Below, piece by piece: positions 3,514 to 54,911 of a stretch of DNA of 64,000 nt. A program made the translations under genes and the position numbers. Position 1 is the first letter of the stretch; each line of letters starts with the position of its first letter. Origin of the DNA: Candidatus Thorarchaeota archaeon. Lineage in GTDB: Archaea; Asgardarchaeota; Thorarchaeia; Thorarchaeales; Thorarchaeaceae. Where the stretch lies: assembly GCA_020348985.1 (NCBI GenBank), contig CP070761.1, positions 1,112,921-1,176,920 of the forward strand, read 5' to 3'. The notes beneath the pieces are model-generated. The model did no database searches. It was not told the DNA's origin and saw only the letters and a program-made list of their open reading frames with translations.

Positions 3514-4725
3514 ATGCCAATGAAAGAAATCCTAGTCAAGGCTGCAGAGATCATAATCGGAAACGGGGAGATGCTCGAGGACGCATCAGTTCATGTTCGA
3601 GGCAACAGAATAGCCGATGTCGGACCTGATGTGAAATCGCCAAATGCCGAAGTCATGGACTTCTCAGACCGTGTCATAATGCCAGGCATCATTGATACAC
3701 ACATACACGTTAGTCACGACGGTCAGAATCCAGATCCCAGGGAATCATCACTCTTCACCGACGAATACCTAGCAATTCGCGGAGCGAAACTGGCAGGGCA
3801 GATGCTGCAATATGGAATAACAACAGTTGCTGATGCTGCTGCAAGAAGCGATGTTTCATTTGCAGTGAAACAGGCGGTAGAAAAAGGAATAGTACGGGGA
3901 CCGAGAGTGCTTGCTTGCGGAAGAATGATCACGATAACCGGCGGCCGTGACAGGATATACGGACCAAATGAAGCAGACGGCATAGATGGAGTTCGTCGTG
4001 CAACAAGAGAGGAGCTCGGAAGAGGTGCTGATTTCATCAAGTTAGCTGCCACAGGAGCGATTTCGTCATCCAGGACAGAGAGCTTCAGTGCTCAATTCAC
4101 TCTGGAAGAACTGCGAGCGGCCGCGGAAGAGACACATAACGTAGGCAAGATGGCTCACGCTCATGCCTACGGGGACGCAGGAGTACAAAACACGATCCTG
4201 TCAGGCGTTGATGTTGTGGTGCATGGTCATCCACTGAGTGATGAATCCATTGACATGATGCTAGAGAATAAGACACTTCTAATGCCGACTCTTGTGACCT
4301 ATTACGAATCCCAGAAGCATCACGATGATGGGGACCTCCCTGACTACATGGTCCGGAAGGAAAGGGAGCTTTTCCCTCTAATAGAGAGTGGCATCAGAAA
4401 CTCGGTCAAGAAGGGAGTGGAGATTGTTTTAGGCTCGGACACAGGAATGCCTTACACTCCCTTTGGGCCTTCAACATTGATGGAACTAGAACTGCTTGTG
4501 AAAATGGGTGGGATGTCTGAGATGGATGCTATTGCGGCTGGAACTCTCAATGCAGCTAGGTCTCTGAAGATAGAATCCGACACAGGGACTATTGCTCCTG
4601 GCAAGTCCGCTGATTTCCTAATTCTGGGTGAAGATATCAATCCAGTGGACGACATCACATCACTACAGAAACTCGGTGCCATTGAGGCAGTCTTCCTGAG
4701 GGGAAAAAGAGTAATCGCCGAGTAA
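3514..4725 (+). CDS. Amidohydrolase-family metal-dependent hydrolase
   Basis: The ORF has a 'GIIDTHIHVSHDG' metal-binding HxH motif and the overall architecture of imidazolonepropionase/prolidase-like amidohydrolases. The track ORF starts at TTG 3478, but the first in-frame ATG (3514 or 3520) is the more likely start. Confidence 0.65.
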   Translation: MPMKEILVKAAEIIIGNGEMLEDASVHVRGNRIADVGPDVKSPNAEVMDFSDRVIMPGIIDTHIHVSHDGQNPDPRESSLFTDEYLAIRGAKLAGQMLQYGITTVADAAARSDVSFAVKQAVEKGIVRGPRVLACGRMITITGGRDRIYGPNEADGIDGVRRATREELGRGADFIKLAATGAISSSRTESFSAQFTLEELRAAAEETHNVGKMAHAHAYGDAGVQNTILSGVDVVVHGHPLSDESIDMMLENKTLLMPTLVTYYESQKHHDDGDLPDYMVRKERELFPLIESGIRNSVKKGVEIVLGSDTGMPYTPFGPSTLMELELLVKMGGMSEMDAIAAGTLNAARSLKIESDTGTIAPGKSADFLILGEDINPVDDITSLQKLGAIEAVFLRGKRVIAE

Positions 4726-38629: not shown

Positions 38630-41521
38630 ATGCGAACCCTTATGCGACGAAACATGAGTAGGCTTTGGCCTGTGATCTATGCAATCTCTACTTTGAGAAA
38701 CAGACCGTTTGTCAGCGCAGGCTTGACGCTGGTCCTTGGATTGGGACTTGCACTTCCGGTTACGGTCTTCGCTTGGTCAGAAACAGGAATTGCTATTGCA
38801 GCTCATGACTACTCTGCGGACAGCGTCTATCAGTTCAGATTCAGCACTCAGGGAACAGATACTTCCAGCACGGTGAGAAATGCTGCCGACTATGCTGCAA
38901 CAATCGATATCGTCGAAGCGGCTGACTACATTCCGTCAACGTCTGGCATACTCACAGGAGGTAGATTCGGCACGTGGACATGGTACCACATGAACATGCC
39001 ACTAGACATGATGAATCTCGTTGACGCGAGAGTAATCCCTCTGACCGACGAACAGATAGAGCGGTGGACGGGAGAGTTCAATTGCAGAGGTCAGTTCTCA
39101 TTAGAAGATGGTGAGGTGTTGGTTTCACAGCAAGTAGTGAACCTCGCCTCTACACACTTTGGTGAAATCCTTGACATCGGAAGCACAATCAGTATTGATG
39201 TGCTGACTCAAGTTACAAGGCGAGACGGTAACGTTTCACGAAACCAGGCAATAGTAACTAGTCTCTCCAGTCTAACAATTGTAGGAATCTATTCGCCAAA
39301 ATCCATTCTGACACAAATTGGAAGAGCGTTCGAATCGGTTGAAAGAGGCACAGGTGACCCCCTGCGGAATGACCATGCACACGTTCTCGGAATAGACCAT
39401 TCATTGATTATCAGACGTGACTCTCTATCCTATTTTGAACTCTACAATATGGGAGTACAAGGCACCTTCCCACCTAGCGTGCTTCTGAAGGTTTCAGAAG
39501 ATGTAATCGCGGATCTAGATGTGGGTGAGTTGGAGTCTGTGCTGTTGTCTGTGAAATCGCTCATAGAGAGCAGATACCGCACGTTGACCGTGATTGGTGT
39601 GTTGGAAACCAGAAGACTCTCAGCCCAGATTGAGGCGTATTCGCGAAGTCTAATGTTGGCAATGCTGTCTGTACCAGTCATCTTGGTATCTCTTGTTCTG
39701 AGTGTTTTCACCACTGAGGCCGCGTTGACGCGTAGGAAAGGGGAGGTCAGTACGCTTAGAGCGAAGGGTGCAAGCTACAATCAGATTCTCGGAATGTTTG
39801 TTGCAGAGGCAATGATAATCGCTGCCTGTGCCTTCCTGCTTTGCTGTATCGTGGCAGTCTTCGCAGCCCCATTAATGGGTTCTATGACAGGAGGCCTGCT
39901 TGTAGACCCTACGAGGTACGCCCTCTTCGTGGCAAATCTGAGAATCCCGCACTCCGCCCTGCTGATTGCATTTGGAATGTCACTCTTCCTTGTGGGCGCG
40001 TATCAAGTCCAATTGAATCGGCTTTTCGACGTACGTGACATCGCTCAGCTGAACAGACCACACTGGTCAGAGGCAGTACGAGATGTCAGAAGGAGTCCGC
40101 TTCTGCTTTCATTCTTGTTTGTAGCTGCAGGAGTAGCGGCATTGCCGCTCGCCTCTGTCCAAAGCACGAATATAGCAGCCATTGAGATTCTGTTTATTGC
40201 ACTGGCTCTCTTCGCACTCTCGCACCTTGGATCCAACATTCTTCGACCGACTGTGGCACGATTGTTTAGTGGTTCACACAGAGGCCTTGGCGAGGTTTCA
40301 ATCTATGTAAATCGCAGTATCATGAGGAGAAGAAAACAACTCATTCCAATCCTCGTGATTCTGACTTTGACGATAACCACCACCAACGTGCTTCTTGTCG
40401 AGAACTACAGCTTTGAGAAATCGATGCAACAAGAAATCGATTACGCAGTTGGAGCCGACATTCGAATTGAAGGAAACAGAATCCCCCTGACTATGATAGA
40501 ACAGCTCCAAGAGGGCTTTGGAGTAACTTACGTCACTCCGGTGGCGATTGGTGATGTCTATGTGGGAACAAGCCGGCTGACTCTGGTCGGAGTGGACCCA
40601 ATCTCATACCTCAATGTCGGTCGATTCATCTCTAGTTCATTCGTCGATAGGACCCCTTCGTCTGCTCTGACCAAGTTGTCAACTGCGCCCGATGGAATCA
40701 TCCTCTCAGTATTCCATTCGCAGGTCTGGAACAAGACAGTGGGAGATTCGATGGAGATACAGTATACTGTAGAGCTGGAAAGTGTTTCACGTCAGCTTGA
40801 AGTAACAGACATCATGAACAGCGCCCCTGGTCTTGGGTATTCATCGCCGGGCTTGGAAGAGAGTAGAAATGTTGGCAGATCCTACGGGTTCCAGATAGGT
40901 AACGGTTTTGCACTGGTGAACATGGAGCTGTTTGAATCCATCTTCAGTTCCGATTCCACGAATAGATTCTTGGCGAAGCTTGGAGAGCCGAGTGAAGCGC
41001 GAATACAGGTTTATCGCATAATAGACAGTCTTCGCGTAGATGTCTACTCTCCGTTGGTTTCGGAGACTCTGAGCAGTGATTTCGGGACTACTCTGTATTC
41101 AAAGGGCGTTGCTGGCATAACTTCAATCTCAGCAGTCATGTGTTGCCTTATGGGCATATTTGCTATTGGCCTCTTTATGGGTTCTGTTGTGAGGGAGCGC
41201 AAGCCCGAATATGCAATTCTTAGGGCAATGGGGGCTACAAGAAGAAAGATCGTCTTTGCAGTCATTGGAGAGTTTGCAGGACTGCTACTGGTGACTGTAA
41301 TCCTTAGCATTGTGTTGGGATTTATCATAGGAGGCTCAATGACAGTCTTAGTGTTCGCTCTCTCGCCTTACGTTAACTTGATTCCTCCAGTAGCCCATTA
41401 TCCCATCGCGATTCTATCATTGGCGGTAATCACCCAGATCGGTGTGTTCGCAGCTGTTAACTTTGGCCCCGCTAGATCTGCTGGCACTACAGATATGATC
41501 GCAGAACTGAGGAATCTCTGA
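38630..41521 (+). CDS. Large FtsX-family (MacB-like) ABC transporter permease with two FtsX/4-TM modules and large extracytoplasmic domains
   Basis: The 963-aa protein has an N-terminal TM, an extracellular domain, a 4-TM block, a second extracellular domain and a second 4-TM block. No ATPase gene is adjacent. Confidence 0.5.
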   Translation: MRTLMRRNMSRLWPVIYAISTLRNRPFVSAGLTLVLGLGLALPVTVFAWSETGIAIAAHDYSADSVYQFRFSTQGTDTSSTVRNAADYAATIDIVEAADYIPSTSGILTGGRFGTWTWYHMNMPLDMMNLVDARVIPLTDEQIERWTGEFNCRGQFSLEDGEVLVSQQVVNLASTHFGEILDIGSTISIDVLTQVTRRDGNVSRNQAIVTSLSSLTIVGIYSPKSILTQIGRAFESVERGTGDPLRNDHAHVLGIDHSLIIRRDSLSYFELYNMGVQGTFPPSVLLKVSEDVIADLDVGELESVLLSVKSLIESRYRTLTVIGVLETRRLSAQIEAYSRSLMLAMLSVPVILVSLVLSVFTTEAALTRRKGEVSTLRAKGASYNQILGMFVAEAMIIAACAFLLCCIVAVFAAPLMGSMTGGLLVDPTRYALFVANLRIPHSALLIAFGMSLFLVGAYQVQLNRLFDVRDIAQLNRPHWSEAVRDVRRSPLLLSFLFVAAGVAALPLASVQSTNIAAIEILFIALALFALSHLGSNILRPTVARLFSGSHRGLGEVSIYVNRSIMRRRKQLIPILVILTLTITTTNVLLVENYSFEKSMQQEIDYAVGADIRIEGNRIPLTMIEQLQEGFGVTYVTPVAIGDVYVGTSRLTLVGVDPISYLNVGRFISSSFVDRTPSSALTKLSTAPDGIILSVFHSQVWNKTVGDSMEIQYTVELESVSRQLEVTDIMNSAPGLGYSSPGLEESRNVGRSYGFQIGNGFALVNMELFESIFSSDSTNRFLAKLGEPSEARIQVYRIIDSLRVDVYSPLVSETLSSDFGTTLYSKGVAGITSISAVMCCLMGIFAIGLFMGSVVRERKPEYAILRAMGATRRKIVFAVIGEFAGLLLVTVILSIVLGFIIGGSMTVLVFALSPYVNLIPPVAHYPIAILSLAVITQIGVFAAVNFGPARSAGTTDMIAELRNL

Positions 41522-41643: not shown

Positions 41644-42135
41644 ATGGACGAAATCTACATCAGGTATTGGACAACAACAGGACGCGAGAGAATCGAGCCC
41701 TATATGACCAATAGGACAGAAATAAGTCTCGAGTATCGCGACATAGCCGCCATAGACATATTGCCTCTGGTATGGTGCAAGGGTCTGCGCCTACTAAGCC
41801 TCAGAGGAAATCATCTAGCAAACTTGGATTTGATGTCTTTGGCCAGCTGCCCGAATCTCGAGATGTTGAAGCTGAGCTACAACAAACTTCAGGCAATTGA
41901 CCTTACACCACTTGGCCAGTGCACGAATCTGAAGGAATTGTCCCTAGAAAGGAATAGATTCACCTCACTGGATCTTTCCCCACTGTTTGAGTGTCCAAGA
42001 CTTGTTGACCTTGGAATGGACGATTCGATCGAGTTGACGGCCGATTTGATGTTGAGATCAGTCGGAAATTGGCCGGATGTGTTGGTTAACAGATTCTACA
42101 AGATCAAGTGGGAAGTTCCGGCGTACCTCGGCTGA
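41644..42135 (+). CDS. Leucine-rich repeat protein
   Basis: The ORF has tandem LxxLxLxxNxL units, including 'LRLLSLRGNHLANLDL', 'LEMLKLSYNKLQAIDL' and 'LKELSLERNRFTSLDL'. Confidence 0.55.
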   Translation: MDEIYIRYWTTTGRERIEPYMTNRTEISLEYRDIAAIDILPLVWCKGLRLLSLRGNHLANLDLMSLASCPNLEMLKLSYNKLQAIDLTPLGQCTNLKELSLERNRFTSLDLSPLFECPRLVDLGMDDSIELTADLMLRSVGNWPDVLVNRFYKIKWEVPAYLG

Positions 42136-42216: not shown

Positions 42217-43581
42217 ATGCAGGTTAGGGATACACTCTGCAACCCAGAGAAGTGCAGCGGAGATTGTCTTGATGCTTGCAAGCATGTTCATGGCGAGGAT
42301 TCACCCCTCGGATTCTCAAGGGAGGCCCGCAGACCAATTATCAATCTCAACACTTGTACTGAATGCCTGGCCTGTTTGAGAGAGTGTCCATTTGATGCAA
42401 TCGTGATAGCTACATCATCGGGAGAAAAGTCACGCCAGTCGCCTTTTGCTCTCGTATCAACTAGGGATGCATCAACTGTTAGACCGTACGAAGTATCAGA
42501 TGACTATCAGAGATTTCCAGAGATTGATGTAATCTTCGCTAGAGTCTATCACGATCCGGATTTCAGCCATTACACGCGTGGCATCTACTCGGATGCTCGT
42601 AGGATGATAGACAAGCGAATTCCCGGCTATGGCCGTGCTGACTTCGAACTGGGGGCGAGTACTTGGAAACTTTACGACAATAGAAAGCAAGCGTCTGAAA
42701 CCTATGACTGGCAAAAGACTCCCGCCCTGAGATCAAAGCCCTCCAAGCCAGACAGGAGGAAACTCACAAAACGAATCAAACGTGCGGCAAAGTTCCTTGG
42801 TGCAGCACTTATTGGCGTAGCAGATCTGGATAGAAGATGGATTTACTCAACTAGTATTGAGGGAGACGAGTATATCTTCCCGGAAGGAATCAATCGTGCG
42901 ATAGTTGTTGCCATCGAGATGGACTATGATCTAATAGATACATCACCTGCATATCCTGCAGCGGTAGCTACAGCAAGGGGCTACTCGCAGATGGCGTATA
43001 TTGAGATTCATCTTGCTGAATTCATCCAAAGGATGGGATATCGGGCAATTTCGTGCGGCAACAATGTCGCATTAAGTGTCCCGCTTGCGATAGATGCTGG
43101 ACTCGGTCAATACGGGAGACATGGCATTCTAATCACGAAGGAGTATGGGCCCCGGGTTCGAATCGCGAAGATACTGACCGACATGCCGCTCATTCCCGAC
43201 AGACCAGATGCTGAGTTTTGTAAGTCGGTTGTGGAGTTCTGCAAGGCCTGTGAGAAATGCGCAATAACGTGTCCTTCTCAGTCTATTCCATACGGCATAG
43301 ATAGGACATGGAAGGGCATGACCAAGTCGAACAATCCGGGAGTCAAGAAGTGGTTCGTGGAACCTGAGACCTGTTATGCATTTTGGGTGCAGAATGGTAA
43401 TGATTGTTCGAACTGTATAAGATCATGTCCGTATAACAAACCGAATAACCTGCTGCATAAGTTCACATTATGGGTTATTCAGCACATGCCTTGGCTGAAC
43501 AGATTTGTAGTCATGATGGATTACCTATTTGGCTTTGGAAGACAGAGGAACCCACAAACAGTTTGGGCAAAGCATGATTAG
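42217..43581 (+). CDS. Reductive-dehalogenase-like (RdhA/QueG-family) iron-sulfur protein with an extra N-terminal ferredoxin-like Cys cluster
   Basis: 'GRHGILITKEYGPRVRIAKILTDMPL' is followed by 'CKACEKCAITCP' and 'CSNCIRSCPYN', the RdhA-type cluster motifs. The N-terminus has additional 'CTECLACLRECP' motifs. Confidence 0.45.
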   Translation: MQVRDTLCNPEKCSGDCLDACKHVHGEDSPLGFSREARRPIINLNTCTECLACLRECPFDAIVIATSSGEKSRQSPFALVSTRDASTVRPYEVSDDYQRFPEIDVIFARVYHDPDFSHYTRGIYSDARRMIDKRIPGYGRADFELGASTWKLYDNRKQASETYDWQKTPALRSKPSKPDRRKLTKRIKRAAKFLGAALIGVADLDRRWIYSTSIEGDEYIFPEGINRAIVVAIEMDYDLIDTSPAYPAAVATARGYSQMAYIEIHLAEFIQRMGYRAISCGNNVALSVPLAIDAGLGQYGRHGILITKEYGPRVRIAKILTDMPLIPDRPDAEFCKSVVEFCKACEKCAITCPSQSIPYGIDRTWKGMTKSNNPGVKKWFVEPETCYAFWVQNGNDCSNCIRSCPYNKPNNLLHKFTLWVIQHMPWLNRFVVMMDYLFGFGRQRNPQTVWAKHD

Positions 43582-45748: not shown

Positions 45749-47392
45749 CTATTCAGACATTGCCATGCGAGTTGCACCAACTCTGATTATCAGAAGCCCA
45801 ACAGCTATCAAAGCGATACTTGGAGCAAGTAGGGCAAGGGCCATATTGCTGGAATCGATTATCATTGAGATGAGAAGCGCCGGTTGTGATACCAAGAATA
45901 TGGTCAACATTGTGGCACCAGTGTTGTCTTTGAATATCTGGCTTCCAGCATCTTCGTAGTTTGGGTTGTTAGCGGTAACGCCTATACTGATGAGAATCGA
46001 ACCCATGACTGCAATTGACGCGCATCCAAGAATGACGAATGCATCTGCAAGGGGCAAGCCAATAATCAGTGTAATGAGAAGGGCAGTAATCGCGGCCATT
46101 GGGAACCCGAATATGAATGACTGGCCGATTCTTGCCTTCATGTACTTCATCACCCCTTTTGGGGTGCTCTTCAACATCCATAGTTGGTCCTTTGAGTCCA
46201 AGAACCCGATTCCACCGAATGTGAGACCGCCAATCACGGATAGTAGGTTCACAGCCGCCAATCCGGAAACGAAGAGCCTGAGCTCACAACTGAGATCCAA
46301 GAAGGCAGCACTGTTGACCATAAGGGGAAATACTACAGCAATCACTACTCCGAAAGCAATCTTCGAGATGTTCTGTGCCTTCCTTCCGAAGTCCTTCATT
46401 GCTGTAACCAGTAATGTACCATAAGGCGTGGGAAGGACCCATCTTATTCCTTGCAGCACAGGATTCTCTCTTCCGGTTGTCACAATCTGCTCGTAACGGG
46501 GGCCGAAGCCAAGTTTGAATACTCGATCGGATGTCAAGAAAGCCAGACCTATCATCAACAGCGTAAATGCTGACAGTAAGAACGTACAAAGCTGAGGATT
46601 GCTGCCCAAGACAGACTCGTAGGCCAATATGCTGGATGCAGGCAGATTGATTCCGTTGAACAGGATGGTTATCCAAGTAATCAAATCCGCACCCCAGGTG
46701 AACGGGAATAACATGGCACCTTGAGCACCGAGAACGCTGGAAATGGTCTCAGTGGAGAAAAGCATTCCATAGAGAGGGAGAATGGCGACGAAGCCAAGAA
46801 TTACAGAAAGGGCTTTTGCTATATCATTGCCTCTGGGAGAGTCGCCAATCTTTGCTTGTATCGCAGTTGTCAGCAGAGTAGACGTCCAGAGTGTAATCAA
46901 AGCCACGAAGAACAATGCCAAATACATCAGAGCCTGTCCAACCAGAGTGACCTGATAGACTAGTGCAAAGGGTGAAATAACACAAGGCGCAATGAAGAGA
47001 ACTGCAAGACCGTAGATTGGAACTCTCCCCATGAATGTGCCCGTCATAATGTCCCTTGTTCGAACGTTATTGCTGAGCATTATCTCCCATTGCCCAATCT
47101 TGATCTCTTGAAGAGCATAGGAAATCGGATAGACGAGCCACATCAGCCACAAGAACATGATAAGAGAACGCATGTATTCAGGAAATGATGCAATCAGAGA
47201 AGCTTCGAGTGTGGCACCAAACCAGTCCATCACAAAAGAAGCCAGGAATGGAGCCACAATCAAAGCCCAGATTGTGCCGAGAACGAGGAGGGCTCCGCCT
47301 AATGTCCTACGGCGCTTCCTTTGTCTTGAGGTCAGGACAAGAAACTCGACCCTTGCAACATGATACCACTTTCCCGTCATGACCTCGCCCAT
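45749..47392 (-). CDS. Large polytopic permease, paralog A (putative ABC-2 exporter membrane component)
   Basis: The 547-aa ORF has at least 12 TM helices. It shares 'ARVEFLVLTS', 'QEIKIGQWEIMLSNNVRT(R/K)DI' and 'DSPRGNDIAKAL' blocks with the ORF at 49354..51042. It is in the same operon as the ABC ATPase. Confidence 0.5.
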   Translation of the reverse strand: MGEVMTGKWYHVARVEFLVLTSRQRKRRRTLGGALLVLGTIWALIVAPFLASFVMDWFGATLEASLIASFPEYMRSLIMFLWLMWLVYPISYALQEIKIGQWEIMLSNNVRTRDIMTGTFMGRVPIYGLAVLFIAPCVISPFALVYQVTLVGQALMYLALFFVALITLWTSTLLTTAIQAKIGDSPRGNDIAKALSVILGFVAILPLYGMLFSTETISSVLGAQGAMLFPFTWGADLITWITILFNGINLPASSILAYESVLGSNPQLCTFLLSAFTLLMIGLAFLTSDRVFKLGFGPRYEQIVTTGRENPVLQGIRWVLPTPYGTLLVTAMKDFGRKAQNISKIAFGVVIAVVFPLMVNSAAFLDLSCELRLFVSGLAAVNLLSVIGGLTFGGIGFLDSKDQLWMLKSTPKGVMKYMKARIGQSFIFGFPMAAITALLITLIIGLPLADAFVILGCASIAVMGSILISIGVTANNPNYEDAGSQIFKDNTGATMLTIFLVSQPALLISMIIDSSNMALALLAPSIALIAVGLLIIRVGATRMAMSE

Positions 47393-47400
47393 TCCACAGC

Positions 47401-47646
47401 CTAACTTGCCTGACTAGGTACTACTGCTTTTCGAAGTTGTCTTCCCAGATACCATATTATGGACATGGCAATGACGGCAAGAACAATGGAAACCGCAAAT
47501 CGTGCAGGACCCATTTCCTCTCCGGGAATCAAATCTCCAATAGCATTCAACGCAATTATCATAATGACAATGACAACTGCAGTGGAATTCTCAGTGTTCT
47601 TGTCTCTAGTCACTGTTCCTGTTCCATTGGTGTCAACCGAATTCAT
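47401..47646 (-). CDS. Small membrane protein
   Basis: The 81-aa ORF has two hydrophobic helices. It is spaced 8 bp from permease A inside the operon. Confidence 0.35.
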   Translation of the reverse strand: MNSVDTNGTGTVTRDKNTENSTAVVIVIMIIALNAIGDLIPGEEMGPARFAVSIVLAVIAMSIIWYLGRQLRKAVVPSQAS

Positions 47647-47675
47647 GCTTCAGATTCCTCCACTAATTCACTATC

Positions 47676-49187
47676 CTACGTGCCAATCCTTCGTCTCAGG
47701 ACGAGAGCAAGCACAACTACCACACCGAAAGCTCCAGTCAACGGCAAAATCAGTGACATTGGCTGTGCCTGGCTTTCCAACGCGGCCTGAAGTGCGATCC
47801 CTGCGGCCCTCCACGAATCTGCAGTAGCAAGCAAATGACCTGCTATGTCAGCCAAATCCTGTCTGTGGTTCTCAAGAACTACATCGAGGTTTCTACTCGA
47901 GTCGAATTCCTCGACCATTTCAAAGAACGTGTTGGATAATAGAGAGTCGTGATTGGCCAGGTAATCGAAATCAACCAATGTTCCGTTGTCACTCAGTGCG
48001 TCCAAGTGTGTTAGGGCATTCTGACCTGCGACGAGAAAATCGGTCAAATCAAAGTCAGTCAGAAGTCTTGGGAGTGACTCCAGAGCTGTGCGGTATGAGA
48101 GATACTGGAGTGTCAACATGAACTCGAGAAACATCCCAAGATTGGCCAGACGATCAATCTGGTCCTCGAAGTTGTCATATTCCTCAATGTAGAGAGCAAC
48201 ACCTTCTGGAGTGATGTCATAGCTGAGCCCTCGGAATGCCTTTTCGCCGAAGTTTAGGAAGAAAGCGTCTTCGTCCGTAAAGGGGATATAGGATTCTTGC
48301 GCTCCAAGCAGCCTTGACGCCACAAACTCACCGAGTTCTGTTTGGAAGTCAGGTTTCGTCCCATTCTCAGGTTTTATTGTCGTCGTCCCGTAGGCAAATG
48401 CACCCCAAGCATTGTTCAGCTGAGAGTAGTTCATTGTGTAACGCCATCTGCCATCTTCGGGGTAACCAAAATCGTCACCAAAGGCGCCTACACCAGGATC
48501 CAAAATCTCAACGGTCTCGCTCGTATCATTATACCCTATCGCCAGGACAGCATGACCTGAGACAGGGGCAGTTGTGTTTTGGAAAAGTCCATAGTCACGT
48601 AGGATTTGATAGTCGTCAGGGGGGAGATAGTAGGGATCAGTCCACAAGACAACGGGATATCCCTCGTCCAGCGTGTTCTTCATGATCTCAAACGCATCAT
48701 TCCAGCCATGGATTGTATTGATGTCCGGATTCCACTGCGACCATAGCTCAATAGCTGTGTCGACCCAAGGAGAGGTCTCGCTAAGATAGAATTTCTGTTC
48801 TAGTCCGTAGAAGTCACAAATGGGGACCAATTGGCCGACCTGAATGTAAGCAGAACCAGCTAGGAACGTCATTGTGTCGTTAAAGCGAATGTATGCTGCC
48901 GAGAATCCGATTCCCGATGCTGCAAAGAACTCGTGGAGAGTCAAAGGGACCTCTGCGCCGCCAAGAGCCATTGTAACTGCAGCCCAGAAACAGAATCCGC
49001 TAATCTCCTGCCATACATAAGGTGTATCCTGAATCAGTGCTGAACCATCAATGGAAATGGTATGGTCAGGACCCGCAATTACAGGCCCTGACCTATTGTC
49101 GTGTAAGGAGATAGGAAACAATGATAGCGAAAGCAGTAGGAGGACCATGATGGTCATTCGTGTCTTAGGTGAACGAACGACCACCAT
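47676..49187 (-). CDS. Secreted papain-like cysteine peptidase (C39-like / BtrH-N-like) with a C-terminal TM anchor
   Basis: The protein has a signal peptide, a candidate catalytic Cys in 'QEISGFCFWAAVTMALGG', a candidate His in 'SGHAVLAIGYND', and a C-terminal hydrophobic helix followed by 'RRRIGT'. Confidence 0.5.
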   Translation of the reverse strand: MVVVRSPKTRMTIMVLLLLSLSLFPISLHDNRSGPVIAGPDHTISIDGSALIQDTPYVWQEISGFCFWAAVTMALGGAEVPLTLHEFFAASGIGFSAAYIRFNDTMTFLAGSAYIQVGQLVPICDFYGLEQKFYLSETSPWVDTAIELWSQWNPDINTIHGWNDAFEIMKNTLDEGYPVVLWTDPYYLPPDDYQILRDYGLFQNTTAPVSGHAVLAIGYNDTSETVEILDPGVGAFGDDFGYPEDGRWRYTMNYSQLNNAWGAFAYGTTTIKPENGTKPDFQTELGEFVASRLLGAQESYIPFTDEDAFFLNFGEKAFRGLSYDITPEGVALYIEEYDNFEDQIDRLANLGMFLEFMLTLQYLSYRTALESLPRLLTDFDLTDFLVAGQNALTHLDALSDNGTLVDFDYLANHDSLLSNTFFEMVEEFDSSRNLDVVLENHRQDLADIAGHLLATADSWRAAGIALQAALESQAQPMSLILPLTGAFGVVVVLALVLRRRIGT

Positions 49188-49353
49188 CAGTCACCCCTGG
49201 ATCCGACATTTAACAGCTTCAATGCACTGTCGACTTCACGTTGGGTTGGATTATTGCTCAGTCGCAAATCGTACATGGTTTTGGGGCGCTGGTGAAATCC
49301 AGCACCATTCTTACCGTGTCGATATCTGAGTATTCCCGGCCCCTCCATTAGAG

Positions 49354-51042
49354 CTACACCTCAACCTTGCCCAGGCTTCTGACGCCCAAGAACAGCATCA
49401 GGCCACCCATGAGCAACAATGCCACTGGACCCATGATGGCTTGTGTGAACCAGAAACCATCTACACCGAAGATGTTCTCAATGACGCGAAAGATGTTGAC
49501 ATCCAATGCGATACTGAAGAATATGTCGATGAAGAGGGGAGCAATCAGTGTAAACTGGGTCAACAACATGGAGCCTATTAGAACACTCTGATGGGCTGGA
49601 GACTTCGTGTCTTCATAGTTAGGGTTCTGAGCTGTCATGCCCATGCTTACCATGACAGCACCGCAAACTATGATGTATGAAGATGCAATCATCTGCAACG
49701 CCATCAATGGCTCAAGTGCAAACATGACACTGACTACAACACTTGGAGCAAGACTTAGAGGAAAGGCCAGTAGGAATCCTGACGCGAGTCTGGCACGCAT
49801 GAAGCGAGAAGCACCAGATGGTGCACTCCGGATTATCCAAAGCTGGTCCTTGCTCTCAAGGAATCCTGTTCCTGCGAATGGGAAGACTCCGACAACACCA
49901 ATCATTATGCCAATCATTGGCAGAATATCCATGGCCGTGACGGTGTCACCATCGTAGACAGCAATCTGGGACATGATAATCGGAAGTACTACCGCCAGTA
50001 CAACACCGTAGAGAATCTTTGAAATATTCTGAACCTTTCTGCCAAAGTCCTTCAGACTCACCACTGTCAACGCACCAAAAGATCCCTTGGCTGCTCTCCG
50101 GACTCCGCGTATCACAAAGTTCTCTCGACCTACAGTTGTGACGGTCTCAGTGCGCACACCGGCACTGATTGTGAAAACTCTGTCTGCAGCACTTAATGCA
50201 ATTGGCACCCATACCAAGCCGAATGCTGCTGTTAGGAGTAGACTCGTCCACATGTCGAGCTGCAAAATCGCCCCAAAGCCCAGTATCTGAGAGCCAGTCA
50301 AACCAATACCATTGAAGGCTATCGCAATCCAGCTGACCAAGTCTGCTGGCCATGTGAATGGCATTAGCAGAAATGCATTCATTCCTAGAATATCAGACAA
50401 CACTGGCATGAAGAACATCACACCGTACATAGGCACTATCACAATCAGTGCAATAACGAAGGTCAATGCCTTAGCTATGTCGTTTCCGCGTGGTGAATCC
50501 CCAAGTCTTGCTTGGACCAATGCCGTCACGAAGTTGGAGAGCCAGATGGTTGAAAGAACCATGGCTGCAATCGCACTGTATACCAAAGCCTGACCTAGGA
50601 ACGAAACTTCAAACGCTAGCATGAATGGAGATATCATTAGGGGAGCAAGTATCACTACAACCAATCCGTAGAATGGTATCTTGCCAGCGAAAGTGCCAAT
50701 GATTATGTCCTTTGTTCTCACGTTGTTTGAGAGGAAAATCTCCCATTGACCAATCTTAATCTCCTGTAGGGCGAAGGACAGTGGGTATAATAGCAACAAT
50801 ATCCACAGGAACAGCATTACTGTACGCATGAGTCCAGGGAACATAGACATCAACAGTAGTCGAATCTGTGACATTGGAATCAGCGACTGTATGATGAAGC
50901 CCATGATCGTTGGTGCCAAGTACGCGGCCCATACGATAGCTAATGCATACATGCTTGCCACGGTGACTGTTCTGTGGCTCCTGAAGCTCGAGGTCAAGAC
51001 GTAGAACTCAGCCTTCGCGATGCTTAGCCACTTTCGGGTCAA
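49354..51042 (-). CDS. Large polytopic permease, paralog B (putative ABC-2 exporter membrane component)
   Basis: The 562-aa ORF is paralogous to 45749..47392. It lies 4 bp downstream of the ABC ATPase gene. Confidence 0.5.
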   Translation of the reverse strand: MTRKWLSIAKAEFYVLTSSFRSHRTVTVASMYALAIVWAAYLAPTIMGFIIQSLIPMSQIRLLLMSMFPGLMRTVMLFLWILLLLYPLSFALQEIKIGQWEIFLSNNVRTKDIIIGTFAGKIPFYGLVVVILAPLMISPFMLAFEVSFLGQALVYSAIAAMVLSTIWLSNFVTALVQARLGDSPRGNDIAKALTFVIALIVIVPMYGVMFFMPVLSDILGMNAFLLMPFTWPADLVSWIAIAFNGIGLTGSQILGFGAILQLDMWTSLLLTAAFGLVWVPIALSAADRVFTISAGVRTETVTTVGRENFVIRGVRRAAKGSFGALTVVSLKDFGRKVQNISKILYGVVLAVVLPIIMSQIAVYDGDTVTAMDILPMIGIMIGVVGVFPFAGTGFLESKDQLWIIRSAPSGASRFMRARLASGFLLAFPLSLAPSVVVSVMFALEPLMALQMIASSYIIVCGAVMVSMGMTAQNPNYEDTKSPAHQSVLIGSMLLTQFTLIAPLFIDIFFSIALDVNIFRVIENIFGVDGFWFTQAIMGPVALLLMGGLMLFLGVRSLGKVEV

Positions 51043-51046
51043 GACA

Positions 51047-51817
51047 TCACCTCCAGGCCAGGAGTGCTTCGCGGTCTACTTGACCTCCAACTATCTGCAG
51101 GTAGGCTTCCTCAAGGTCGCTGACATGGGCTGCCTGGATTATATCCTCAGGAGAGCCAAGTGTGACTAGCTCACCTTCGTTCAGAATCCCTATGACGTCA
51201 CAGACATCTTCGGCGAAGCTTGTCATGTGCGTGCAGATGAAGAAGCTCGTCTCGGTCTCTTCTGCGAGGACAAGAATCAAGTCCTTCACAAGTGCACTTG
51301 CAGAGGGATCAAGCCTTGAAGTGGGCTCGTCCAGAAAGACTAGCTTTGGCTCATGTAGCAGAGTAGAGGCTACCAACACTTTTTGCTTCATACCAGAAGA
51401 GTACGACTCCAGAAGGTCATCTTGTCTTCCCTCAAGACCAAGCATTCCAAGTAATGCGTCAATCCTCTTCATGAGAGACTCGCCATTGTGGTCGTTGAGT
51501 GCGCCAATGAACTCAAGAAACTCAACAGCTGAGAGTTTCGAGTAAAGCCCCGGTGACTCAGGAAGGAGACCAGTGATTGCTTTGATCTCGTCTCTCTGGG
51601 TGTCAATATCAAGTCCGCAGACCTTTCCTCTCCCGCTCGTCTGTTTGAGCAAGCCAGACAGAATACGAACGGTGGTTGTCTTGCCGGCCCCATTAGGACC
51701 AAGGAAACCGAATCTGCTTCCAGCACGTACCTCTAGATCGAGGTCCACAACTGCGCGAACTGGCCCGAAGGTCTTGTTCAGCGCTTCTGTTTGAATCACT
51801 ATACCGTTTCCGGTCAT
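51047..51817 (-). CDS. ABC transporter ATP-binding protein (ABC-2/CcmA-like)
   Basis: The ORF has Walker A 'GPNGAGKTT', the signature 'YSSGMKQKV' and Walker B 'LVFLDEPTSRLD'. Confidence 0.75.
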   Translation of the reverse strand: MTGNGIVIQTEALNKTFGPVRAVVDLDLEVRAGSRFGFLGPNGAGKTTTVRILSGLLKQTSGRGKVCGLDIDTQRDEIKAITGLLPESPGLYSKLSAVEFLEFIGALNDHNGESLMKRIDALLGMLGLEGRQDDLLESYSSGMKQKVLVASTLLHEPKLVFLDEPTSRLDPSASALVKDLILVLAEETETSFFICTHMTSFAEDVCDVIGILNEGELVTLGSPEDIIQAAHVSDLEEAYLQIVGGQVDREALLAWR

Positions 51818-51832
51818 CGTTAATCACTTGTA

Positions 51833-51887
51833 AATCTTTACCGATTACAGGTATACTTAGCATAATGTTTATATATAAATCTTTACC
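51833..51887. promoter_or_regulatory. TATA-like box (TTTATATATAAA, 51868-51879) flanked by an 11-bp direct repeat AAATCTTTACC (51833-51843 and 51877-51887)
   Basis: These are read directly from the 129-bp divergent intergenic region between the ABC ATPase gene (-) and the 202-aa ORF (+). The TATA box lies about 79 bp upstream of the ATG at 51947. A TTCCGGAA palindrome lies further downstream. Confidence 0.35.
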
Positions 51888-51946
51888 ATAAAGCAGTAGA
51901 GATTAACCCGGAATACTTAAGTTCCGGAAGAACACGAGGAAACAAA

Positions 51947-52555
51947 ATGGGACTACTCTCAATTCACGAATCAGTTGTCTGGTGGGAATACCAGCACGGT
52001 AAATCCACTGGCGATATATTCAGTGAGTATGAGAGACCCATGCCAACTCCGAAACATGTCCTTGATGTCTACGGGCGTCTAATTGACGAAAAAACAAAGA
52101 GCGATGAGGACAAGAAGAAGGAGAAGGAAAAGATTCAGACAACAGAGCTGAAGAGTGCAGCTTACGTGTCACGTGTTCTCAGCAGGGCGAAGGAAAAGAT
52201 TGGCAAGGAGCTCAGTAATCATGCCAACAGCCATCGTCTTGATGTTGAGACAGTCTTGGATGACAAGGGGTACTTGAAGGGCTTCGATTATCAGGCCAAT
52301 ACGGAAGTATTCATCATCTTCACTTTGGATTTAGGAGTGGTAGTCTGGTACAGGCACGACTCTTATGCTGGGAAGCTCTGTCCCGACTGTCCGAAGGAAG
52401 AGGAATGTAGACAGACACTTGATACGACTCTGCTTGAATACGACTTGACGCTTAGGCCGGATCAAGAAGAGCTTCACATGACACGGCAGTCGATTGCAAT
52501 CTTCAACAAGCTTGCGGCCAAGGAAGTTCCTCGCTACAAGAGACAAGAAGAGTAA
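51947..52555 (+). CDS. Hypothetical protein (Cys-containing 'CPDCPKEEEC')
   Basis: The 202-aa ORF is the first gene downstream of the TATA promoter. Its 3' end overlaps the start region of the next gene. Confidence 0.4.
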   Translation: MGLLSIHESVVWWEYQHGKSTGDIFSEYERPMPTPKHVLDVYGRLIDEKTKSDEDKKKEKEKIQTTELKSAAYVSRVLSRAKEKIGKELSNHANSHRLDVETVLDDKGYLKGFDYQANTEVFIIFTLDLGVVVWYRHDSYAGKLCPDCPKEEECRQTLDTTLLEYDLTLRPDQEELHMTRQSIAIFNKLAAKEVPRYKRQEE

Positions 52556-52568
52556 TGGATGTGAGATA

Positions 52569-53318
52569 ATGAGTTCGGGATACGATGAACGAGTGATTAA
52601 GCCTCCTTTGGAGTCAGTGGCGTTTGGTAGGGTATTCAAGCCCACAGCGTCGCTTCGCAACAAGTACTGGTTTATAGCCATCATCACCGCCCTTATCATG
52701 TATTTGACGACTATTGGAACATTCTTCGGAATAATGTACATGGTCTATTCAATCAATCAGACTCTGTTTCAATGGCAGACCTGGTTCGACTCGTTCTGGG
52801 GACCAGTGAACTTCTGGTTCTGGGGAATTGCCTTGGTGATTCTGATACCTTACATTGTCGGCGTACCTATCTACCTGAACAGGTTCGAGTACTCTGTAAG
52901 AGGCGAGTCCGGTGAAACGATGCCGGAGGTTTATGTCAAGAAGGGCATCATTAACGTAACCGTCAAGCATGTTCCTCTGAGAACGATTACCAATATATCA
53001 ACAAGGACAGGACCGTTTGACAGACTCTTCAAGATTGGCAATGTTGAGATTCACACAGCAGGGCAATCTGGCAGCTACTATGAAGCAGGAAAGCCGGAGG
53101 AAAAAATCGAGGGAATCGTGTTCTACGAAGAACTTAGAGACTACATACTTGGTGAGATGCGGAAGCTGAAGGGCACTTATGCAGTTGGAACCGAGGTACT
53201 CACACCTGATGAGACTCCTATACCTGGAAACATAGACGAAGCTATTCTCACGACGCTTCGACAGCTTCGCGACATCTTGAGAAGAATGGACGAGAAACTA
53301 GACCGAGGAGGATATTGA
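52569..53318 (+). CDS. bPH_2 (YdbS/YdbT-like bacterial PH domain) membrane protein, paralog 1
   Basis: 'VIKPPLE' is followed by 2 TM helices, then 'YVKKGIINVTVKHVPLRTITNISTRTGPFDRLFKIGNVEIHTAGQSG', which matches the bPH_2/DUF304 consensus ending in 'TAG'. The internal ATG 52569 is the more likely start. Confidence 0.5.
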   Translation: MSSGYDERVIKPPLESVAFGRVFKPTASLRNKYWFIAIITALIMYLTTIGTFFGIMYMVYSINQTLFQWQTWFDSFWGPVNFWFWGIALVILIPYIVGVPIYLNRFEYSVRGESGETMPEVYVKKGIINVTVKHVPLRTITNISTRTGPFDRLFKIGNVEIHTAGQSGSYYEAGKPEEKIEGIVFYEELRDYILGEMRKLKGTYAVGTEVLTPDETPIPGNIDEAILTTLRQLRDILRRMDEKLDRGGY

Positions 53319-53320
53319 AA

Positions 53321-53428
53321 ATGCGACCGTTGAGTAGACGCGTGCTGGCCATATTGAGCGTTATGGGCACCTTCTCGAGTCTCTTCATCTACTTTCTACT
53401 GATTAGTCTATCAGGAGGGTTCTCATAA
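53321..53428 (+). CDS. Small hydrophobic peptide (35 aa), member of a local family
   Basis: I translated this myself; it is below the ORF-track cut-off. It reads MRPLSRRVLAILSVMGTFSSLFIYFLLISLSGGFS. Its stop overlaps the ATG of the next gene (TAATG). Confidence 0.3.
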   Translation: MRPLSRRVLAILSVMGTFSSLFIYFLLISLSGGFS

Positions 53429-54168
53429 TGGGTAAGGAAAAGAGTAGCAAAGTAATCAAACCACCACTGGAGAGGATTGCAAGCGGGAAGGTCTTCAGAC
53501 CAGCGAGAGCTTTCATCTACAAGGGATGGTTTGATGGCATCTTGGTTGCCATTGGAATTTGGTTGTTTGGAGTAGTGTGTGCGTTTGGAATCGGTTGGAT
53601 TGTTGTCGTAGCAGAAGGCATTCTTGTTGAAGAATTCTGGGGAGCGGTAGCCTACTGGTGGGGACCCGCCAATTTCTGGTATTGGCTGATAACGGCAATA
53701 TGGCTGACCCCTGCGGTGATAATCTGGCCGTTCTATGTTCGAAGAATCGAATACTCTGTAATTGCAGAAAGCGGGAAAACAATGCCCGAGATCTACGTCA
53801 GGAAAGGCATAATCACGATTACTGAGAAGCACGTTCCGTTCCGCACGATCACAAACATCTCAAGTCGCGCCGGTCCGATTGACAGGCTCTTCGGAATAGG
53901 GAGCGTGTGGATCCAGACCGCGGGATACTCAGGCGGCGCTCAGGCGGGAGCAAAACCCGAGGAGAAGTTGGAGGGCATTCACATCTTTGAGGCGGTTAGG
54001 GACTTTGTCCTCAGAGAGCTTCGTAGGTTCAGAGACCCCTATGTGACTGGAACAGAAGTCGTATCTCCAAGACCTGAAGCGGCCGTGACAGAAGGGACAT
54101 CCTCGCAGGAAGAAATCCTTGGTGTTCTGAGAGAGATCAGAGATCTGCTCAGGCGCGAGAGAGAATAG
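53428..54168 (+). CDS. bPH_2 (YdbS/YdbT-like) membrane protein, paralog 2
   Basis: 'VIKPPLE', 2 TM helices and 'YVRKGIITITEKHVPFRTITNISSRAGPIDRLFGIGSVWIQTAGYSG' make it paralogous to the upstream gene. Confidence 0.5.
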   Translation: MGKEKSSKVIKPPLERIASGKVFRPARAFIYKGWFDGILVAIGIWLFGVVCAFGIGWIVVVAEGILVEEFWGAVAYWWGPANFWYWLITAIWLTPAVIIWPFYVRRIEYSVIAESGKTMPEIYVRKGIITITEKHVPFRTITNISSRAGPIDRLFGIGSVWIQTAGYSGGAQAGAKPEEKLEGIHIFEAVRDFVLRELRRFRDPYVTGTEVVSPRPEAAVTEGTSSQEEILGVLREIRDLLRRERE

Positions 54169-54178
54169 CAGTCTAAGA

Positions 54179-54367
54179 GTGATGAGAATGGTTTCAGCAA
54201 GCAGAGTACTGGGAATCATCCTAGTGGTCGCGGGATTCGTTCTTATCCTCTTCCGAGTTGTCGAAGCCATAGCAGGATTCCCCTTCCTCATGGAGCAATT
54301 GCTATTGGGATTCTTCGTTTTGTTGATAGGGCTATCATTGATGGGGAGACTACGTAAGATTGGATAG
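54179..54367 (+). CDS. Small membrane peptide (62 aa), same local family
   Basis: 'SRVLGIILVVAGFVLILF...' has two hydrophobic helices and shares the R-V-L-x-I motif with the other peptides. Confidence 0.35.
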   Translation: MMRMVSASRVLGIILVVAGFVLILFRVVEAIAGFPFLMEQLLLGFFVLLIGLSLMGRLRKIG

Positions 54368-54379
54368 GAGAAATGTAAA

Positions 54380-54484
54380 TTGAGTAGCAGAATCGTTGCG
54401 CGTTTCATTGTTTTACTGATTGGGATTATCCTGTTCGTGATTTTCCTGTTTGGGTTTTTCATGATGGGCGGATCTTTCTCGTAG
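54380..54484 (+). CDS. Small hydrophobic peptide (about 34 aa, TTG start), same local family
   Basis: I translated this myself. It reads (L)SSRIVARFIVLLIGIILFVIFLFGFFMMGGSFS. The start codon is uncertain. Confidence 0.25.
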   Translation: MSSRIVARFIVLLIGIILFVIFLFGFFMMGGSFS

Positions 54485-54528
54485 AACTTCATGAATGGAC
54501 GTGAGTATCTGACGGGATGTGGTGACGA

Positions 54529-54798
54529 TTGGTTTTAGGAAGACGAGACCGAGGAGTCGTTTTGGCTATCGCAGGACTCTTCCTAATGTTCTTTCAGATA
54601 ATCGATCTAGTCATTGGAGGGTCCTACTTCGGCGGCTTTGGACTCCTGGGAGCATTCATCTTTCTGATTGGATTGACCGTTGTCGGAAGAGCATTGACTA
54701 GCAGAAAGGCTGCATGGTATTCTACCTTCTTCATTGGCATTGTGTTGTTTGTGTTCTTCCTAGTCGTCTACCTAATGAAGGGAGGAATGCTACCCTAG
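54529..54798 (+). CDS. Small membrane protein (89 aa), same local family
   Basis: 'RGVVLAIAGLFLMFFQIIDLVIGG...' has three hydrophobic helices. Confidence 0.35.
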   Translation: MVLGRRDRGVVLAIAGLFLMFFQIIDLVIGGSYFGGFGLLGAFIFLIGLTVVGRALTSRKAAWYSTFFIGIVLFVFFLVVYLMKGGMLP

Positions 54799-54815
54799 GA
54801 TAGGAGTCTGCTAGA

Positions 54816-54911
54816 ATGGTTACAGTTCAAAGAGTTGTCTTCAAAATCGCCCTCATGATTGTGGCAATTGTGCTTCTCCTGATAGGATTGTTCCTCTTTT
54901 CGATGTTCTAG
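54816..54911 (+). CDS. Small hydrophobic peptide (31 aa), same local family
   Basis: I translated this myself. It reads MVTVQRVVFKIALMIVAIVLLLIGLFLFSMF. A GGAG-like sequence lies upstream. Confidence 0.3.
   Translation: MVTVQRVVFKIALMIVAIVLLLIGLFLFSMF

Follow-up and report, generated by a model that had tools for sequence, protein, structure and literature searches.

An Asgard archaeal operon pairing an ABC-2-like exporter with a predicted extracytoplasmic papain-fold cysteine enzyme

A stretch of 64,000 nucleotides from a Candidatus Thorarchaeota archaeon (contig CP070761.1, positions 1,112,921 to 1,176,920), referred to in its whole length as the window, carries a minus-strand operon at 45749–51817 in which the genes of an ATP-binding cassette (ABC) ATPase and a permease with 12 transmembrane (TM) segments precede the gene of a cysteine enzyme. 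This unit of three genes is conserved in approximately 25 loci. The enzyme is a member of the Peptidase_C39_2 family, resembles BtrH in structure, and should face the outside of the cell as judged from signals in its sequence. With less than even confidence, we favor a model in which the three proteins form an "extrude and cut" module of the envelope that would handle membrane-active peptides with cleavage outside the cell. Among prokaryotes, no closer relatives of eukaryotes are known than the Asgard archaea, and to our knowledge almost nothing has been learned experimentally of the cell-surface biochemistry of this group.

The operon and its conserved core

An earlier description of this stretch (the original prediction) listed five genes, and all five same-direction open reading frames (ORFs) were confirmed in size and position on the minus strand. 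They encode an ABC ATPase (256 aa, 51047–51817), a first permease (562 aa, 49354–51042), the cysteine enzyme (503 aa, 47676–49187), a membrane protein with two hydrophobic segments (81 aa, 47401–47646), and a second permease (547 aa, 45749–47392). The spacing of 4–8 bp that had been given for the operon holds for two of the four junctions, ATPase/permease 1 (4 bp) and 81-aa gene/permease 2 (8 bp), but not for permease 1/enzyme (166 bp) or enzyme/81-aa gene (29 bp). The 166-bp gap contains a hydrophilic 53-aa ORF (49348–49187, minus strand) that was absent from the earlier gene list. The operon may be presumed to be co-transcribed.

A locus scan with one genome per species returned 77 loci, nearly all of them from Thorarchaeota, Hermodarchaeota and metagenome-assembled genomes labeled Promethearchaeota. 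The enzymes were sorted by BLAST-based synteny and a neighbor-joining tree. Approximately 30 of them, including that of the window and with identities down to ~35–40%, make up an ABC-linked clade in which the ATPase and permease genes precede the enzyme gene wherever the flanking sequence suffices. The exceptions are L006 and L021, the latter having an enzyme that adjoins only p202, a divergently transcribed gene described below; two sister loci of L006 have flanks too short for ABC linkage to be judged. In most of the linked loci, the upstream stop codon is found 165–182 nt before the YxWQE motif of the enzyme, and thus there is almost no intergenic gap. The adjacency of ATPase, permease and enzyme is therefore kept in a deep Asgard clade, as far as the core of the predicted gene order is concerned.

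The remainder of that gene order did not survive the comparison. The enzyme had been described as embedded between two paralogous permeases, an arrangement that was observed in none of the ~26 related ABC-linked loci and was thus seen in this window only. The closest relative, L081, has a permease 1 that is 85% identical and presents the order ATPase, permease 1, 53-aa ORF, enzyme and 78-aa protein with an SDR gene directly following, and permease 2 is missing there as it is from most loci. Since the closest relative does without permease 2, we reject the notion that two flanking permeases enclose the peptidase gene in a functional cage. A second ATPase together with permease 2 is found upstream of the enzyme in two loci (L002 and L011, where the permease 2 orthologs are 50–51% identical and lie beside the second ATPase), a second ATPase without a second permease in seven (L012, L013, L014, L020, L023, L025 and L042), and neither of the two in about a dozen. 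Given how the accessory genes vary between loci, the conserved core consists of three genes and the peptidase-between-permeases layout is a local peculiarity; permease 2, together with the 81-aa and 53-aa ORFs, was added in particular lineages and lies outside the core.

Of these additions, the 81-aa protein has no significant Pfam match and a single homolog, encoded by a 78-aa gene that occupies the equivalent site in L081 (68% identity). The 53-aa ORF is intact, with the same length and position, in L081 (10695–10856) and L082 (3342–3503). These two copies are identical to each other and share 64% identity with that of the window; none was found in the other loci, and no family match was obtained. 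While the encoded product would be basic and hydrophilic, its codon changes (9 synonymous, 19 non-synonymous) lack a third-position bias, and its status as a gene is for this reason uncertain. In 13 ABC-linked loci, a MarR/HTH-type gene of 91–96 aa directly follows the enzyme gene (e.g., L002 8139–8414), and this gene is absent from the window.

The window permease 1 is 73–74% identical to its counterparts in the two-ATPase loci and only 47–56% identical to those of single-ATPase loci. The nearest counterpart of the enzyme (61%), by contrast, comes from L004, which has a single ATPase, and the enzymes of the two-ATPase loci reach only 40–43% identity. The operon looks mosaic, suggestive of a past rearrangement or recombination, which may also account for the wider junctions of 166 and 29 bp and for permease 2 being out of place. 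Base composition is even over the window (~48% GC) and nothing suggests a foreign island. An Rfam scan of 44–56 kb gave no match. A known defense system was ruled out since PADLOC returned generic ABC/AAA ATPase similarity only.

The pattern of linkage bears directly on the main rival of the favored model, in which the genes are co-located and co-regulated, for instance in an envelope-stress regulon with the bPH_2 membrane proteins encoded nearby, while the products act independently, as a general surface or nutritional cysteine peptidase of an archaeon that degrades protein in sediments and as an ordinary efflux pump. Adjacency that is mostly almost gapless and has been kept through divergence to ~35–40% identity would be unusual for unrelated functions, and the linked enzymes form a clade of their own, suggesting specialization. 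Independence is nevertheless consistent with the other enzyme clade of ~48 loci, which has the same architecture and invariant residues and never has ABC genes nearby, and with the remote permease relatives of Helarchaeota and Jordarchaeia, which occur as plain ATPase-permease pairs without an enzyme gene. Several sampled genomes also possess two or three enzyme paralogs, and papers on Asgard sediment genomes, including those of Thorarchaeota, discuss extracellular peptidases. Taken together, independent function is judged somewhat unlikely. If co-regulation were all that joins the genes, the operon would amount to a correctly annotated surface peptidase beside an efflux pump.

A papain-fold enzyme with outward-facing signals

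Against Pfam, the window enzyme scores 27.4 bits with Peptidase_C39_2 (PF13529; gathering cutoff 24), an alignment that covers only the His-side half of the profile (86–142), and 20.8 bits with BtrH_N (PF14399; cutoff 29.7). All 37 homologs match PF13529 (best E = 2.4e-13) and all 37 match BtrH_N at E ≤ 1 (best E = 3.4e-9). At the same threshold, the classical Peptidase_C39 profile (PF03412) matches neither the window enzyme nor any of the homologs, and the link to classical C39 peptidases that had been drawn earlier thus finds no support. In an alignment of the 37 homologs, extending down to 35% identity, residues Q60, C66, H212 and D230 are invariant. Both motifs proposed earlier to hold the catalytic Cys and His are present and contain Cys66 and His212, respectively, and in its Gln-x5-Cys spacing the enzyme agrees with papain. 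The best match in a profile search of PDB sequences was 3erv, a "putative C39-like peptidase", in which the Gln/Cys motif and the His-x-G-Y...DP motif both align.

An AlphaFold2 (AF2) model of the enzyme was of good quality (predicted local distance difference test, pLDDT = 86.8; predicted template modeling score, pTM = 0.82). The model may be considered in terms of an N-terminal helix (aa. 7–22), a disordered linker, an alpha/beta catalytic domain (aa. ~50–275), and an all-helical domain (aa. 281–470) whose last helix (aa. 442–501) is continuous with a C-terminal TM segment. A search against the PDB identified AziU3/U2, CtaG and CcbD as the best folds (E = 5e-6 to 2e-4, target-normalized TM-score 0.55–0.61), followed by xylellain and the primitive phytochelatin synthase. 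CtaG has been described as a papain-like ligase that is built in exactly these two parts and carries a Cys-His-Asp triad (PMC12865890). As modeled, the Asgard enzyme shares with BtrH, CtaG and CcbD a fold in which a papain-like domain is followed by a helix-rich domain. From the profile match above the gathering cutoff, the BtrH-type fold matches and the conserved Cys and His, the predicted resemblance to C39-like/BtrH papain folds is borne out: the enzyme is a Peptidase_C39_2 member at the level of family and BtrH-like at the level of structure.

The same fold matches raise the alternative of an extracellular ligase or transpeptidase, in which an acyl-Cys intermediate would be resolved by an amine, so that a compound reaching the cell surface by export would be attached there or cyclized. 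The best PDB folds are all amide-forming transacylases that combine a papain-like N-terminal domain with a helix-rich C-terminal domain and a Cys-His-Asp triad, and the BtrH_N match extends to each of the 37 homologs. However, the window enzyme itself falls under the BtrH_N cutoff and its best relative at the sequence level is a C39-like peptidase (3erv). BtrH, CtaG, CcbD and AziU3 are cytoplasmic, are encoded in biosynthetic clusters and rely on carrier-protein acyl donors, and their identity to the Asgard enzyme is only 10–13%. Carrier-protein thioesters would be unavailable outside the cell, where the Asgard enzyme is predicted to be anchored, and neither a carrier protein nor biosynthetic genes were found among the conserved neighbors. 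A ligase of this kind is therefore considered unlikely.

The topology of the enzyme was examined from its sequence. A hydrophobic helix is present at the N-terminus (aa. 9–30) and a TM segment at the C-terminus (aa. 474–499), the latter followed by RRRIGT. Basic residues flank both of these terminal helices on the cytoplasmic side (MVVVRSPKTRM... and ...RRRIGT). Seven N-glycosylation sequons were observed where 2.6 are expected, an enrichment reached by ~1% of shuffles, and individual sequons are conserved among the homologs (N401 in 37 of 37, N220 in 32 of 37). Because of the basic flanks, the sequon enrichment and the conserved sequons, the catalytic domain should face outward, and it is probably N-glycosylated. 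The original prediction of a separate, exported and anchored enzyme that is not fused to the transporter is thereby upheld. The opposite arrangement, an N-terminal fusion to a type IV exporter that acts in the cytoplasm, was rejected given the separate gene, the outward signals and the ABC-2-like partner.

It had further been suggested that the operon represents an unusual peptide or protein maturation-export system in which a C39-type enzyme removes double-glycine leaders from exported ribosomal peptides, in effect a peptidase-containing ABC transporter (PCAT) split into separate genes. The resemblance consists of a papain-fold Cys/His peptidase, from the same superfamily and with a common set of catalytic residues, that is genetically tied to an ABC exporter and lies near a cluster of small ORFs (2.4 kb upstream of the operon). 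In contrast to PCATs, the peptidase is here a separate gene product of another Pfam family. Of five features that define the C39 family of bacteriocin-processing enzymes, four are lacking, and the one present is the catalytic pair of Cys and His, assisted by Gln and Asp. As a fold match, the C39 domain of PCAT1 was recovered at a probability of only 0.38, and the exporter is ABC-2/type V-like and not type IV. Leader removal by PCATs is cytoplasmic (Havarstein 1995, as cited in PMC6393860), whereas the Asgard enzyme is predicted to face outward. A regular-expression scan of all 25–120-aa ORFs between 36 and 62 kb identified no double-glycine leader, although atypical leaders are poorly covered by such a scan, and the small ORFs nearby appear to be membrane micro-proteins. 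The classical C39/PCAT reading was thus rejected for want of a PF03412 match, a type IV fusion, a cytoplasmic enzyme and double-glycine substrates. Split into separate genes, it found little or no support and must be regarded as very doubtful indeed.

In terms of what has been described before, the domain assignment is not new since NCBI already names these enzymes "C39 family peptidase" or "BtrH N-terminal domain-containing protein". The window enzyme matches an NCBI protein of a Candidatus Thorarchaeota metagenome-assembled genome at 100% identity, and a separate look-up of its exact sequence gave no entry. The Peptidase_C39_2 members that the retrieved literature mentions are chiefly endolysins of phages and enzymes that lyse cell walls. 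Relative to that family, the enzymes described here add a helical domain of ~190 aa and a membrane anchor at the C-terminus, occur in Asgard archaea only, and include one ABC-linked clade. Asgard archaea are not known to us to have peptidoglycan. A search of the literature on Asgard archaea found no study of the enzyme family, and the MEROPS 2017 survey and a review of archaeal "dark matter" mention C39 in other contexts only. Within the literature searched, both the outward, anchored two-part architecture with its Asgard restriction and the stable linkage of one clade to an Asgard-only ABC-2 exporter and bPH_2 proteins appear to be undescribed.

The exporter and a possible function

The ATPase matches PF00005 (4.1e-24), and its best NCBIfam match is to TIGR01188 (drrA; 2.7e-59), at 200.9 bits under the trusted cutoff of 312, which suggests a DrrA-like ATPase of the ABC-2-associated type. 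It is 72–82% identical to the product of the first operon gene in ~20 related loci. A tblastn search with the operon ATPase as query detected no other ABC ATPase in the window, and permease 2 presumably shares this single ATPase with permease 1. That the two permeases are paralogs, as predicted, is clear from a sequence comparison (42% identity over 503 aa, E = 3e-139), and permease 2 retains every residue that is invariant in an alignment of the permease family.

Permease 1 presents ~12 hydrophobic segments by hydropathy, and neither window permease has a match in Pfam or NCBIfam. A word-indexed search returned 498 homologs of the family, and the matches listed are "hypothetical" Asgard proteins of ~560 aa. 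In a full hidden Markov model search of 1.84 billion representative proteins, the family was limited to 204 clusters, the named remote ones being from Jordarchaeia/Freyarchaeota, Helarchaeota and other Asgard lineages. The permease family is Asgard-specific. Among ten of its remote members, six produced sub-threshold ABC2_membrane or ABC2_membrane_3 matches in the N-terminal half. The most conserved loops pair as a duplicated pattern (QWEI/QLWI and GDSPRGND/NPNYEDTKSP), and these loops may be placed on the cytoplasmic side by analogy with the ABC-2 topology.

The AF2 model of the permease was of modest quality (pLDDT = 68, pTM = 0.52). Its closest match was a fused 12-TM mycobacterial ABC-2 pump (8k1n), followed by PmtCD, NosY and ABCG2/G5G8. 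The Foldseek probabilities were ~1.0 for 8k1n, PmtCD and NosY and 0.9–0.98 for most ABCG structures, with E ≥ 8e-3 and low TM-scores. The "ABC-2" label of the original prediction therefore finds no profile match on the window permeases and stands indirectly: from the DrrA-like ATPase type, the permease fold matches and the weak matches of remote homologs, an ABC-2 exporter class is reasonable. The likeness to Rv1217c-Rv1218c (8k1n), PmtCD, NosFY and ABCG2 consists of one ATPase gene with a permease of ~530–560 aa built from two six-helix halves; unlike these exporters, the Asgard permease has no detectable membership in a profile family and is Asgard-confined. In the seven loci with a second ATPase but no second permease, the order is ATPase 1, permease, ATPase 2 and enzyme (e.g., L012 8592–9452), with one 12-TM permease. 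The presence of two different ATPases beside one permease implies that the ATPases pair as a heterodimer on this one pseudo-symmetric permease.

An ABC complex of this kind might also be a mechanotransducer and not a transporter, with ATP hydrolysis switching a tethered extracellular enzyme on or off. In bacteria, FtsEX controls the papain-fold hydrolases PcsB, CwlO and RipC in this manner. An extracellular papain-fold enzyme with a long helical domain, whose last helix enters the membrane and which is encoded with an ATPase and a permease, would suit such a role, as would the finding of no cargo gene. FtsX-type partners, however, belong to the type VII proteins and combine four TM helices with a large domain outside the cytoplasm, whereas the Asgard permease has 12 TM segments, short outer loops and an ABC-2-like fold. 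The FtsEX-like model has little or no support and is very unlikely.

Returning to the "extrude and cut" module, the data establish the genes present, the paralogy, the catalytic residues, the class of fold, the signals of topology and the conservation of synteny. We infer a physical or functional coupling of exporter and enzyme, the nature of the substrate, and hydrolysis in preference to transfer. In this model, two fused six-helix halves of the permease would adopt an ABC-2 (type V exporter) fold and pair with a DrrA-type ATPase dimer. The cargo of the exporter would be a compound of hydrophobic or amphipathic character, probably peptide-like, that is expelled from the membrane or the cytoplasm. 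The C-terminal TM helix, which continues the helical domain, would keep the enzyme at the outer face of the membrane beside the exporter, and the tethered cysteine enzyme would cleave the compound outside the cell, or possibly transacylate it instead. The most likely purpose, by analogy, would be the handling of membrane-active peptides for self-protection or release. PmtCD, among the closest folds of the permease model, exports phenol-soluble modulin peptides.

This purpose is suggested because bPH_2 genes, of which two follow p202 in the window, adjoin ABC transporter genes in bacterial clusters for leaderless-peptide export. The bPH_2 relatives DdE/DdF, Orf7/8 and LnqC/D are needed for the export of leaderless bacteriocins and their genes lie next to those of an ABC transporter (PMC8657885). 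As in the EntDD14 (ddABCDEFGHIJ), aureocin A53 and lacticin Q clusters, bPH_2 proteins, small ORFs and an ABC transporter stand side by side. The likeness is one of gene syntax only; the Firmicutes clusters have no extracellular cysteine enzyme and, conversely, no gene for a cationic amphipathic leaderless peptide was found at the Asgard loci, where the small ORFs that are conserved all encode micro-proteins of extreme hydrophobicity with one TM segment.

Several observations weigh against this model. No substrate gene was found: there is no double-glycine leader, and a clustering in which all ORFs of 25 aa or more from the ABC-linked loci were compared with one another, and whose output was dominated by shadow ORFs of conserved genes, identified no conserved precursor-like or small secreted-peptide gene inside the operon. 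A role in peptide maturation and export is possible, but nothing found points specifically to it, and the original idea of such a system was not borne out. The nearest solved folds of the enzyme are intracellular, carrier-protein-dependent ligases and not hydrolases. Since ~48 stand-alone enzyme loci and the two-gene transporters of Helarchaeota and Jordarchaeia show that both parts occur separately, coupling is not obligatory and each part works alone elsewhere. In the window, a gap of 166 bp parts permease 1 from the enzyme, which leaves co-transcription presumptive. The AF2 model of the permease is of middling quality, with weak fold matches (best E = 8e-3). Finally, the bPH_2 analogy is drawn from Firmicutes, and most ydbS/ydbT pairs do not lie beside ABC genes (PMC8657885).

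A broader and decidedly unlikely version would take the whole block of micro-TM genes, bPH_2 genes, p202, exporter and enzyme as an Asgard-specific surface system that releases and covalently processes small hydrophobic peptides, with the enzyme acting as an extracellular transpeptidase or ligase and not as a simple protease. If true, it would be the first BtrH/CtaG-type chemistry outside the cytoplasm and the first leaderless-peptide export pathway in archaea. For the tentatively favored module, a functional coupling would represent a new combination of an exporter with an extracellular papain-fold enzyme, unlike the fused cytoplasmic C39 domain. The enzyme family recurs in Thorarchaeota-type genomes and one clade is stably tied to an Asgard-only exporter and PH-domain proteins. 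With the ectodomain, a Cys66 mutant and the micro-peptides as points of attack, the module may serve as a concrete, testable entry into Asgard envelope function.

Divergent neighbors and small ORFs

The ATPase gene is separated by a divergent intergenic region of 129 bp (51818–51946) from the gene of a 202-aa soluble protein, p202 (51947–52555, plus strand). A perfectly palindromic TATA-like element, TTTATATATAAA, was read from the sequence at 51868–51879, placing it between the two start codons, at a distance of 51 nt from the ATG of the ATPase gene and 68 nt from that of p202. As a predicted promoter element, TTTATATATAAA could serve both genes. No other neighbor accompanies the operon as consistently as p202. 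Its homologs (50–63% identity) are placed head-to-head with the ATPase gene wherever an ABC-linked locus has sufficient flank, and in two loci p202 adjoins the enzyme without ABC genes. By clustering, the family is present in 23 loci, a cluster that also includes shadow ORFs. The invariant residues of p202 include C145, C148 and C154. No Pfam match above threshold, no PDB sequence match and no PDB profile match was obtained. A role as a regulator is possible. The N-terminus looks HTH-like, an impression by eye only.

Downstream of p202 are two tandem bPH_2 (YdbS/YdbT-like PH-domain) membrane proteins of 274 and 246 aa (52494–54168, plus strand; PF03703, 5e-10 and 3e-9) with two TM segments each. 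One to five tandem copies follow p202 in related loci with sufficient flank. If its first TTG is taken as the start, the first bPH_2 ORF shares 62 bp (52494–52555) with the end of the p202 gene, and its true start is probably further downstream.

The bPH_2 genes are followed by four very hydrophobic small ORFs of 62, 34, 89 and 31 aa (54179–54367, 54380–54484, 54529–54798 and 54816–54911, plus strand). This cluster at 54179–54911 is most likely the "small-peptide cluster" that had been placed approximately 2 kb from the operon. Small ORFs are indeed found there, but as hydrophobic membrane micro-proteins of 31–89 aa and not as leader-bearing precursors. For the 31-aa ORF, L081 has a called gene of equal length with 68% identity. 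In the window and in all nine of the ABC-linked loci inspected, a single-TM ORF of 30–33 aa directly follows the last bPH_2 gene, as at 54816–54911 (plus strand) in the window and, on the minus strand, at 4337–4432 in L010, 1598–1690 in L012, 5118–5213 in L015, 3111–3200 in L055 and 5645–5740 in L081. These ORFs have a grand average of hydropathy of ~2 and a basic N-terminus. While the sequence diverges, length and hydrophobicity are kept, and the micro-TM ORF is probably a real membrane micro-protein.

On the other side of the operon, three plus-strand genes are syntenic with those of relatives. The first (38630–41521) encodes a 963-aa protein whose L081 counterpart has an FtsX domain; no ABC ATPase was detected beside it by tblastn with the operon ATPase as query. 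The second (41644–42135) encodes a 163-aa protein that appears leucine-rich-repeat-like by eye, and the third (42217–43581) contains 4Fe-4S cluster domains and a sub-threshold reductive-dehalogenase match.

In the stand-alone enzyme clade, several loci adjoin a gene with a DsbH-like thioredoxin domain. In both of the loci inspected (L001 8001–11605 and L003 2769–6362), the enzyme gene lies tail-to-tail with a DsbH-like gene of ~700 aa, and radical-SAM and acetyltransferase genes are also found nearby.

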